Source: Amoebidium appalachense (lineage: Eukaryota > Protista > Ichthyosporea). From it: a DNA stretch of 64,000 bases. The notes under the pieces were generated by a model, which worked only from the letters and a program-made list of their open reading frames with translations, ran no database searches and had not been told where the DNA came from. Below are positions 10,501 through 13,500 of this stretch, piece after piece. The position numbers and the translations under genes are program-made. Numbering within the stretch: position 1 is the first letter of the stretch; the number at the start of each line of letters is the position of its first letter. The stretch is from positions 8,436,001-8,500,000 of the forward strand of contig CAVNZM010000012.1 of assembly GCA_963693365.1 (NCBI GenBank), given 5' to 3'.

Positions 10501-13500
10501 GGGGGTGTGCGTGTGTACAAGAAGGTTTGTGTGTGGGGGGCGGGGAGGGGGGGGGGGGGGGGGGGGGGGGGCAAGGGGTGATGAAAATTGAGGATGTGTG
10601 TCTAGAAAGGAGGAGGGGCAAGGGAGGGGGCAGGGGGGGGGGGGGAGGGGGGGGGGGGCCAGGAGAGGGGATTAAAGAGAGTCCAACTGTTTCTTTAAGA
10701 GGATAGCACGGAGTGAAGTGGATAATAAGGAAATAAACGGGGGGGGGGGGGGGGGGGGGGGGGGGGGGGGGGGGGGGGGGGCAAACATAAGTTGTTTAAG
10801 GGCGCCGGATCTGTGGCCTCTGGAGTCATTTGAGCAGCATTGCTATATGTAAAAAAAAATCCCTGATATATGACCAATCCCAATCTAGAATTTGACTACA
10901 TCAATTTTCGTGGCTCACAGATTACGTAATCATCAGCCCTAGACCCAATCAGACGAAACACGAAATCACCCTGAGTATCGTTTTTGAGCCGCCGGCATGA
11001 TCCTCCACGCGCAAACTTCGGTACTTTTCACTAATAAACTACCCTTGAAAATTGGCAGAAACGTTTTTTTCAGTAATTCAAACCTTTACTCAGAACCGTT
11101 TTGTTCGCCTATGATTCTAAGGATACGCCTATGTATTGGTTAGCATAGTGTATTAGGGAAGCATGGGTAATACTCGGAGGCGAAAGAAACGGCTTTGAGT
11201 AAACCTTTATCCTAACCGGAAAACCACTTCTGCCAATTTTCAGAAGGGGTTTATTAGTGAAAAGTGCTCAAGTCTGCGCGTGGGAGACCAAGCAGAAGCG
11301 GACATACGGGGGTGTTTCGTGGTTTGAGCAATTGGAGCAAGTTCATACATTACGTAACTGGTGAGCCACTCGATCAATGATGTAATAAATGGTTGGTCGC
11401 CGATCAGATCATTAATTAGCCATATAGCAACCGCACTCGCATAGTACGCAGACCCCACAGATCCGGCGCCCTTAACCATTACTTTCGCCACTGAATGTGA
11501 TGTGAGTGTATAGCACATGCCATCAGACACTAATTGAAGACCAGGAACTAAGGAAGGGGAGGGAAGGGGTGAGGACTTAGGTGTGGAACGGTATTTGAGG
11601 TATTTGGCTAATTGGAAGGGATGCCTGGGACTGGTTGGGCACACGGGGGGACGGGGGGGGGGGGGGGGGGGGGGAGGCAGAAGGAGATGTTCCTATGGTA
11701 TTTTGTGCGTGTGTTTAGGAGGGAGGGGGGGGGGGGGAGGGGGGGGGGGCAGACGGGGGGATGGGGGAGCGATGGGGGAGGAGGGGGGGGGTCTTACATG
11801 CACACACTCTCCTATGGAGCAGTTGATATGAAGACCACCGCGGGCTAGGACGTTCAGGGTCTTTTCTGAGGGGCAAGTGGGCATATTTAGCACATGCACC
11901 TATGTTTTGCTTACCGCATTAAAAGTGTCAAATCCCCCCACTCACTGATTAACTTGCTGCGTTTTTTTCACTTATGGACGAATTGACTCCGGATAGACGG
12001 TAGATATACAATGTGGATTTTCGAACCCTGTATGGTGCCCAACACTGTTCAAATCCTGCCAAAGTCACATATATCTGCACACGTGCAGTCTTCAATCTTA
12101 CGTGCCACACAGTGACTTGTGTGGTGAGTGGAAAGGTGCAGTGGGAGAAGCGCCCCACGGGCCGGGGAGGGGGGGGGGGGGGGGGGGGGGGGGGGGGGGG
12201 GGATATATATATGAAATGGAAGGCGAAAGAATGCCGATGGGAAGTTGCAAAGGGATAGAAGCGGCAGCGTCTTAGGCTGTGGATAAAGGACAGGGAGAGG
12301 GCGGAATGGGGGGGTTAGAATGTGTTACAGAGTATGAAGTCCACATTTACGACTCACGACACAATGAACATTTTGCACAAGCACACACAAAGAACATCAT
12401 AAGCTGGAAAAGGGGGGGGGGGGGGGGGAGGGGGGGGAGGAGGAGGAGGGGGGCATCTTCTTTTTTATTGGAGTGGGACGGGAAGGGGGGGGGAGGAGGG
12501 GAGTGATGTATGCGTTAGAGGGTTGGGAATATGGAGGAGACAACAAAGAGCAACAACAAAGCGTCACAAACGTGGGAAATTCAAAATCAAAACAATTAAG
12601 CGCGCAGGCAGAAGACACTGGAACAGAGCCCATCATCAGGGGGTTCCTATGCCTCCACAAAAGCATGGGTTTCGACTCTTTAACCTCTCGCGCGTGGTTC
12701 CCAACCCATACTTTGTTTCAACAGCAATAGGCGAGTCCACCCGTCTTGGCCAAAGACGAGCAGGGTTGTTCAAGGAGCAGCACTCTAAGAAAACAGAGTC
12801 TACAAAAACCGCAAGCAGAAAAATCAAAAGAAAACAAGCAGGGAAGTAGAGCATAAGCCGGGCTTCTACAAAGCTCCCCGACTCCATAATCTATGGAGAA
12901 GGGGAGGGAGGGGGGGGCGGGGGGGGGGGGGGGGGGGGGGGGGGGCAATTACGTGAAACTGCACACTGGCCTGTGGTTCGGTCACAGGTGATGGAGGCAT
13001 CCCCATTGACGGACTTAACAACACCTTCGAGCACTGTGATTGACCGGTGAGCACGTGATAGCACCTTATAAGGCAACTGCATGTCCTAATTTGGTAACGG
13101 TGGCACCGTTTATGGAAATGATCACTTCGTTGGGTGTATTCACCCGTTGCACTCTGAGGCCAAGAGATCGGAATGAGTATAATTAGTTATGGAATGTATA
13201 ATTTTTGCGCCAAACAATCGTATACGAGGTGGTTCGGTTGGATTTTTTTTGGGGGGGGGGGGGGGTCACAAGCTGGTGGTTGAATGCGGAAGACCCAAAA
13301 AGGCAATGGGGAAGCCATATGATTGGCTGGGTTTATATGAAGGTAATGTCTCCCCGGGGGGGGTTGAACCGGCAAAGAAAGAGCCCATCAAGTTTTGTAT
13401 CAATGGAGCTACCTTCTTCTCGCGTCTGTTTATCAAATGATAAATGGACAAATGGGGGGATGACAGGAGTTTGGAGGGGGGGGGTTTGAATGTGTCAAAA

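Follow-up and report, generated by a model that had tools for sequence, protein, structure and literature searches.

Organisation of the putative ribozyme domain

The window analysed here is a 64,000-nucleotide (nt) stretch of the genome of the ichthyosporean Amoebidium appalachense (GenBank assembly GCA_963693365.1, contig CAVNZM010000012.1, positions 8,436,001 to 8,500,000), approximately 40% of which is low-complexity sequence. Its minus strand carries two complete copies, at 12.6 kb and 47.4 kb, of a domain embedded in an abundant repeat. Judged by its sequence, this domain is likely a conserved hammerhead variant of new wiring, in which the putative cleavage site GUU (12705–12703 and 47487–47485) is followed by GAAA and then by the heptamer CUGAnGA (12639–12633 and 47423–47417). 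An earlier sequence-only reading had proposed the order UH, GAAA, CUGAnGA, and this is borne out on the minus strand of both copies that it named. Its limits for the domain (12625–12716 and 47410–47498) were too small, as the conserved unit is approximately 160 nt long (12618–12774 and 47397–47558) and reaches approximately 60 nt further 5′.

Read 5′ to 3′, the domain starts with one strand of a helix termed P0, followed by a 7-bp hairpin (H0), the G10.1 strand of stem II, one strand of a connecting helix and block S. After block S come a linker of approximately 20 nt containing a hairpin, block G, the second strand of the connecting helix, a stem I strand, CUGAnGA-U and the P0 partner. The strand after CUGAnGA-U pairs with a strand far upstream, with one P0 mismatch in each window copy, and H0 lies between P0 and the upstream stem II strand. 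The connecting helix (8–9 bp) is directly 3′ of the upstream stem II strand, its partner is the strand just 5′ of stem I, and it reaches stem III's distal end by way of a 3-nt bulge, with GAA facing GGA. Both complete copies have a stem I of 3 bp (GGG/CCC). Stem III, as the earlier reading had correctly described, is 11 bp in the 12.6 kb copy and 13 bp in the 47.4 kb copy, the sequences differing and the pairing being kept. The parts of the two copies are as follows.

47397–47558, minus: complete ribozyme domain, subfamily 2 copy, closed by P0 (helix list and alignment)
47545–47558, minus: P0 5′ strand, partner 47415–47397 directly after CUGAnGA-U (the family majority restores the mismatch at 47409)
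47522–47542, minus: predicted H0 hairpin, 7 bp, loop with self-complementary UGAUCA
47515–47520, minus: upstream stem II strand, G10.1 at 47520, partner 47463–47458 (6 Watson-Crick pairs, 2 double changes relative to the other copy)
47505–47514, minus: connecting helix 5′ strand, partner 47438–47430, tying stems I and II (9 bp, pairing probability 0.85)
47499–47504, minus: kink-turn-like strand with a 3-nt bulge ahead of GAA, facing GGA at 47441–47439 (consensus from the part of PMC4316175 covered)
47482–47498, minus: block S, comprising a stem III strand, GUU (predicted cut 47485/47484) and the stem I strand GGG
47468–47481, minus: variable linker hairpin between stems I and II
47442–47463, minus: block G, comprising a stem II strand, GAAA and a stem III strand
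47416–47426, minus: CCC of stem I, then CUGAAGA (CUGAGGA in the family majority) and an extra U
12618–12774, minus: complete ribozyme domain, subfamily 1 copy (helix list)
12740–12760, minus: predicted H0 hairpin, loop with self-complementary UGGCCA
12733–12737, minus: upstream stem II strand, partner 12678–12674 (5 Watson-Crick pairs)
12717–12731, minus: connecting helix 5′ strand (partner 12653–12646) and kink-turn-like bulged strand (opposite GGA at 12656–12654)
12700–12716, minus: block S, comprising a stem III strand, GUU (predicted cut 12703/12702) and GGG
12657–12679, minus: block G, comprising a stem II strand, GAAA and a stem III strand
12618–12642, minus: stem I strand CCC, CUGAUGA-U and P0 3′ strand (the majority letter at 12620 completes an 8-bp P0)

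Two further observations concern the upstream part of the domain. The segment at 12723–12774 and 47505–47558 (minus) resembles a second, altered CUGAnGA block with its flanks, H0 replacing the core, and duplication of the CUGAnGA block could be a route to a split core. Approximately 100 nt upstream of the domain, a hairpin-like segment with G-rich and C-rich arms (47640–47665 and 12855–12880, minus) is kept in both subfamilies.

Conservation of the core

Between the two complete copies, core identity was 16 of 16 positions, compared with 55 of 100 elsewhere. A loose descriptor of the S-G-C block order matched two places in the window, the two complete copies, and none in 30 block-shuffled windows. 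In other collections, the two core words gave 123 chance matches (7 in viral contigs and 116 in metagenomes, where 45 of 64 parts were scanned), of which one had a stem III of 10 bp and none had one of 11 bp. None of the 116 metagenome matches was a relative, and the H0 hairpin pattern had no matches in the metagenomes.

That the domain is a chance arrangement of short words in a repeat is very improbable. Its words are indeed short, folding of the whole domain gave an unremarkable z-score (−0.68), and no Rfam hammerhead model matched at E values up to 1. The shuffled-window, stem III and core-identity results speak against chance, as do the covariation and the independent records of Naiad elements described below, and the sharing of one architecture by unrelated sequences already largely refutes it. 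As a separate observation, metagenome contig L077 (approximately 1400–1600), among the chance matches, appears to hold an ordinary hammerhead with a complementary core nearby.

In both complete copies N7 varies and the catalytic positions are otherwise kept, G10.1-C11.1 and A15.1-U16.1 included, and the family majority in public DNA runs differs in the core at the free position N7 only. The earlier statement that only N7 varies among intact copies was partly circular, as 3 of the 12 aligned copies have a broken heptamer, which leaves 9 with an intact one; it is also broken in a 13th, decayed copy at 29.3–29.5 kb, outside the alignment. Two of the copies listed at that time hold all three blocks, while the others are 5′-truncated and mostly keep the CUGAnGA end only.

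An upstream strand as the probable partner in stem II

Covariation was assessed from the two complete copies, the majority letters of contigs from DNA runs and the published supplement to Craig et al. (2021, PMC8557442). The stem II partner of the strand before GAAA is most likely the strand upstream of the cleavage site. GACUC (12737–12733) and GACCUA (47520–47515) are each complementary to the strand that precedes GAAA, two double changes distinguishing the copies, and form five and six Watson-Crick pairs (−6.4 and −6.7 kcal/mol), thereby supplying the Watson-Crick stem II that a hammerhead requires. The sequence-only reading had instead placed stem II downstream, after CUGAnGA-UG. This was probably wrong: the downstream strand forms 6 bp in the 12.6 kb copy and 4 bp with two G·U pairs (−2.2 kcal/mol) in the 47.4 kb copy, and it does not follow the double changes of the strand before GAAA. 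As stem II most likely uses the upstream strand, the two extra nucleotides that had been noted after A9 would start a different helix, P0. Of the proposed pseudoknotted, non-circularly permuted hammerhead with a predicted cut after GUU, core conservation and stem III covariation argue for the ribozyme itself, and the stem II partner probably has to be replaced.

When the split-core structure was placed on the window alignment, 90% of cells were paired and 11 of 45 pairs showed double changes (none of 500 shuffles reached this level, and slid controls did not exceed 2), with the upstream helices represented by 2–3 rows and the structure derived from the same rows that tested it. Double changes were present in stem II and at five pairs of stem III and absent from stem I; the connecting helix also showed double changes. 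Stem I is as short as had been described, and a longer version in the 47.4 kb copy relies on 47479 and 47429, where both letters differ from the family majority. Majority letters repair the P0 mismatch in both copies (47409, 99.9% of depth; 12620, 99.5%). At the stem II partners 47516 and 47462, minor variants changing U-A to C-G reached 4.3/4.0% and 3.3/4.8% in two DNA runs. A third subfamily, seen as loose ends only, has changed stem II, connecting helix and stem III sequences and keeps the 3-nt bulge and GA.

The same block order defines the type-SGC hammerhead, which cleaves in vitro and, in the part of the paper covered here, is found only in metatranscriptomes (Eckert et al. 2023, PMC10085705). 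A plain type-SGC fold could be the active form, with the upstream strands acting as an off-switch that would tie up its helices until those strands are absent from a truncated or differently started transcript. The 12.6 kb copy, with its 6-pair downstream stem II and a 13-bp helix closing around CUGAnGA, would suit such a fold, and so would the four core-adjacent pairs kept in both copies, the nearly invariant GGGCUC after the core and a need of reverse transcription for an uncut 3′ end, given that the copies span the site. We nevertheless regard it as improbable, because subfamily 2 offers only four weak pairs, the local hairpin was no better than shuffles in four of five copies tested and marginal in the fifth (z +0.2 to −1.7), and a downstream stem II is impossible in the Naiad records. 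Compared by hand, the domain also departs from the published type-SGC descriptor in stem I length (3 bp, where 4–7 is wanted), S-to-G linker length (approximately 20 nt, where 0–8 is wanted) and stem II register. Nor is the uninterrupted block C of type-SGC seen: pairing is better with the upstream strand, which shows covariation, and a weak pairing of 4 bp is possible downstream.

The same wiring in Naiad elements

Canonical hammerheads were reported as missing from Naiad elements and from most Chlamys Penelope-like elements (Craig et al. 2021). The parts of that publication covered here flag eight elements with a half core 35–50 nt from the other half (‘HHR_half_core’) and give no structure for them. 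From its supplement we covered 60 of 62 CTGATGA, 25 of 25 CTGAGGA, 23 of 23 CTGACGA and 30 of 43 CTGAAGA matches, with structures read by eye rather than computed and motifs broken by a line end missed.

Nine Naiad consensus records, of six unrelated sequence types, showed the same split wiring. P0 is flush after CUGAnGA, and H0, an upstream G10.1 strand (4–6 bp), a connecting helix (5–9 bp), stems III and I and a site reading GUA, AUA, AUC or UUC are present, while the downstream strand is unable to form stem II. In two octopus records the join resembles a kink-turn of opposite orientation, and others have bulges of 1–7 nt. Six further consensus records, again read by eye, contain an unsplit type-CSG hammerhead; these include the records ending before the Naiad_Hcon, Naiad-2_Nbra and Naiad-3_Nbra headers. 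Across the 15 records, H17 is always A, C or U and N7 is free. It is this comparison, rather than the window alone, that makes a split core the best reading.

The Naiad records also bear on whether the RNA cleaves. A hammerhead-derived structure that does not cleave and serves the element in binding protein, in dimerisation or in priming at poly(G) ends would fit the 3-bp stem I, the GUU site and genomic copies that span the site uncut, and a protein-binding role in particular would fit an H0/P0 junction sequence as invariant as the core. Such a structure is hard to reconcile with every catalytic position being kept around a free N7 in three subfamilies and in these 15 records, with H17 restricted as above, and we give it a low probability.

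Predicted kink-turn, H0 loops and proposed pairing of two copies

Both complete copies follow the kink-turn consensus, with a 3-nt bulge, tandem G·A/A·G pairs and helices on both sides. The predicted motif shares with Kt-7 and box C/D kink-turns a 3-nt bulge followed by G·A and A·G between two helices (PMC4316175, in part). Such motifs bend to approximately 50 degrees (PMC4316175), and ions alone suffice for folding where position 3n is G, as it is in two of the present subfamilies (PMC4382518, in part). Among the papers listed by literature searches, none described a natural hammerhead with a kink-turn. Three other assignments were rejected. A second (double) hammerhead using the upstream GAAAC would have G at H17 and no stem I, and at this point the third subfamily has GAU, as suits a kink-turn rather than a second hammerhead; CUGAnGA is not a box C/D element, as N7 is G in the major subfamily; and the linker hairpin is not a conserved palindrome, as other copies have no hairpin.

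Each of the two H0 loop hexamers, UGAUCA and UGGCCA, is self-complementary, and as adjacent central letters cannot pair within one loop, pairing between molecules is indicated. A common variant at 12749 (78–86% of depth in the DNA runs) would, if the other loop letters are unchanged, produce a wobble-compatible intermediate of the loop. Together, the helix lengths and the self-complementary loop suggest cleavage by two copies. The reading that we favour, at somewhat better than even confidence, is a scrambled hammerhead of C-S-G cyclic order with its ends opened between A9 and G10.1, which would cut after GUU only when two copies pair.

In the proposed mechanism, P0 and H0 would stack and cross the core as a four-way junction, with A9 leading into P0 and H0 into G10.1, and stem II would stay stacked on the core as usual. 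Stem III would continue through the kink-turn into the connecting helix, forming a single long and stiff hairpin whose loop would hold blocks S and G and whose base would hold the CUGAnGA/stem II module. Since base and loop could not then meet in one molecule, the reaction would take place between the base of a first copy and the loop of a second. The dimer would perhaps start with the self-complementary H0 loops kissing, and two copies arranged head to tail would close by symmetry. The tandem terminal repeats of Penelope-like elements could supply the second copy and release unit RNA, leaving lone intronic or truncated copies silent. A side remark in the sequence-only reading, that the hammerhead might be trans-assembled, is probably closer to the truth than its single-molecule fold.

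At 2.8 Å per base pair and with coaxial stems II and III assumed, the return arm would be approximately 42 Å short against a linker of 0–1 nt, a figure that is a back-of-envelope estimate. The split-core hammerhead could still cleave as a monomer if fraying, together with the kink-turn and perhaps a Snu13/L7Ae-family protein bound to it, brought the base within reach of its own loop. All of the covariation evidence is blind to cleavage in cis or in trans, the kink-turn bend and the G at 3n noted above would assist folding back, and PMC10085705 (in the part covered) suggests that helix lengths and angles may allow an interaction helix joined to stem III. The arm is short even when fully folded back, however, and several Naiad forms have a bulge of just 1–3 nt at this point, and we consider a monomer rather unlikely.

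Several observations weigh against cleavage by a paired, split-core hammerhead. In an energy model that has no kink-turn or pseudoknot terms, the 12.6 kb copy favours a local hairpin around CUGAnGA (p 0.97), with P0 and the connecting helix at p 0.00. Downstream stem II keeps four pairs in both copies, and stem I consists of three invariant G-C pairs, so that covariation lends it no support. GUU is a less common hammerhead cleavage site. The shares at 47516/47462 disagree in two small runs (16/6% and 1/43%), these variants were counted separately rather than as linked pairs, and one run has minor variants at C3 (4%) and U4 (9%). Of the six Naiad types, only two have H0 loops that are self-complementary, and the motif was recognised in no Chlamys record among the supplement matches listed. 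Window copies show no concentration of 5′ ends at the predicted cut. Finally, Pfam searches of 150 of 206 non-repetitive window frames found no reverse transcriptase or GIY-YIG domain, all repeat copies being 5′-truncated; two frames near the long copy gave no reverse transcriptase with Pfam, and HMMER on a 65-residue frame upstream found none among 11 short hits, four of which were checked and were unrelated repeat proteins.

A more far-reaching proposal, which we hold tentatively and at less than even confidence, is that the domain represents a seventh natural wiring outside the six-permutation scheme, with a four-way junction in the core, a kink-turn keeping the enzyme and substrate modules of a single molecule apart and a kissing-loop, strand-swapped dimer that alone cuts. 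It would be the missing ribozyme of the entire Naiad and Chlamys branch, ranging from animals to microbial eukaryotes, and a sensor of tandem element transcripts, possibly helped by a host kink-turn protein. If true, the split wiring contradicts the published assumption that CUGAnGA cannot be parted from its stem II strand, so that current descriptors would miss a class of ribozymes. It would explain the apparent lack of hammerheads in a large clade of Penelope-like elements, and would shift non-circularly permuted hammerheads from anonymous metatranscriptomes to eukaryotic genomes, in thousands of copies. A ribozyme that is blocked in cis and active only as a dimer is a possible answer to how an element with many intronic copies spares host transcripts, and the split would offer a new insertion point for ribozyme engineering.

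The host repeat and neighbouring features

A profile search of the window recovered 12 repeat copies (E < 1e-7), all on the minus strand and with staggered 5′ truncation. Ten repeat 3′ ends are all followed by C tracts, all on one strand, and the shared minus orientation of the copies (2174–48669) follows the local orientation of the C tracts. In two public DNA runs, 7,399 and 8,615 contigs matched the 47.4 kb copy, so that the family must be very abundant; the runs are assembled contigs, and depths on this copy are not copy numbers.

The host is probably a Penelope-like retroelement of high copy number, 5′-truncated and inserted in poly(C), an assignment based on poly(C) targeting, 5′ truncation, the 3′ position of the domain and the shared ribozyme. 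Targeting of (C)n is described for Chlamys elements in the part of PMC8557442 covered, and the repeat shows the frequent 5′ truncation and (C)n microsatellite insertion bias of Naiad and Chlamys elements. The copies are listed below.

47329–48113, minus: longest copy in the window, ending in poly(C), 5′ limit not reached
12471–12896, minus: copy with C-rich tracts on both sides (profile match)
38862–39078, minus: truncated, decayed copy with S and G blocks and a broken CUGAnGA (profile match and alignment)
27970–28189, minus: truncated, decayed subfamily 1 copy (profile match and alignment)
24797–24971, minus: truncated subfamily 1 copy, CUGAnGA end only (profile match)
40348–40511, minus: truncated copy, block G onward (profile match)
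13473–13613, minus: truncated subfamily 2 copy (profile match)
10015–10158, minus: truncated subfamily 2 copy (profile match)
8264–8412, minus: truncated subfamily 2 copy (profile match)
5439–5601, minus: truncated copy with a broken core (profile match)
2833–2981, minus: truncated copy, likely the 3′ half of the third subfamily, as judged from complementarity
2174–2230, minus: old truncated copy (alignment)

Three ultra-short copies of approximately 20 nt, corresponding to the 3′ tip of the repeat, were also seen at 45460–45700 (minus), each inside poly(C). The closest match to a protein encoded nearby (93% identity) occurs in EukProt alone, as would fit a microbial eukaryote, and the ESM Atlas offered no clue to lineage. 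Other features of the window are:

1131–1212, minus: tRNA gene with a long variable arm and a GCU anticodon (serine type)
32010–32500 and 38300–38900: duplicated segment resembling the end of a multi-pass membrane protein
46355–46900, minus: frame immediately downstream of the long repeat copy, in which an OTU-like cysteine protease motif is weakly matched (E 0.085)
53690–55568 and 60710–62697, plus: two related F-box and leucine-rich-repeat genes with long frames, the second split into three frames

Comparison with known hammerheads

The block order S, G, C departs from the circular order of hammerhead types I–III, consistent with the absence of an Rfam match. A literature search, with subscription literature mostly outside its coverage, found no paper describing the split form. 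The comparisons below rest on partial coverage of the cited papers.

Type-SGC shares with the domain the order of site, GAAA and CUGAnGA, the extra U after A9 and a helix tying the free sides of stems I and II. The block model of PMC10085705 assumes that CUGAnGA is inseparable from its neighbouring stem strands, whereas block C is split here, with the G10.1 strand upstream and P0 and H0 between A9 and G10.1. That paper also treats stems II and III as coaxial and notes type-SGC RNAs in which stem III and the interaction helix are directly joined, which helix lengths and angles may allow; in the present domain both strands connect stem III with the tying helix. In that work type-SGC is confined to metatranscriptomes, whereas the domain described here lies in eukaryotic genomic DNA. 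Type-CSG, known from two metagenomic sequences (PMC10085705), has the same cyclic order with the stem II 5′ strand ahead of block S. Its ends follow stem III and its CUGAnGA is joined to stem II, whereas here that link is open and the G-to-C link is closed.

The nine Naiad records share the split-core wiring and a location near the 3′ end. They differ in that their sequences are unrelated, the kink-turn-like join points the other way and Naiads prefer (TA)n. Other hammerheads of Penelope-like elements also act as dimers (Cervera and De la Peña 2014, PMC4209133). Those are type I ribozymes of normal order that dimerise around a short palindromic stem III, whereas here stem III is long and the predicted swap involves stems I and II.

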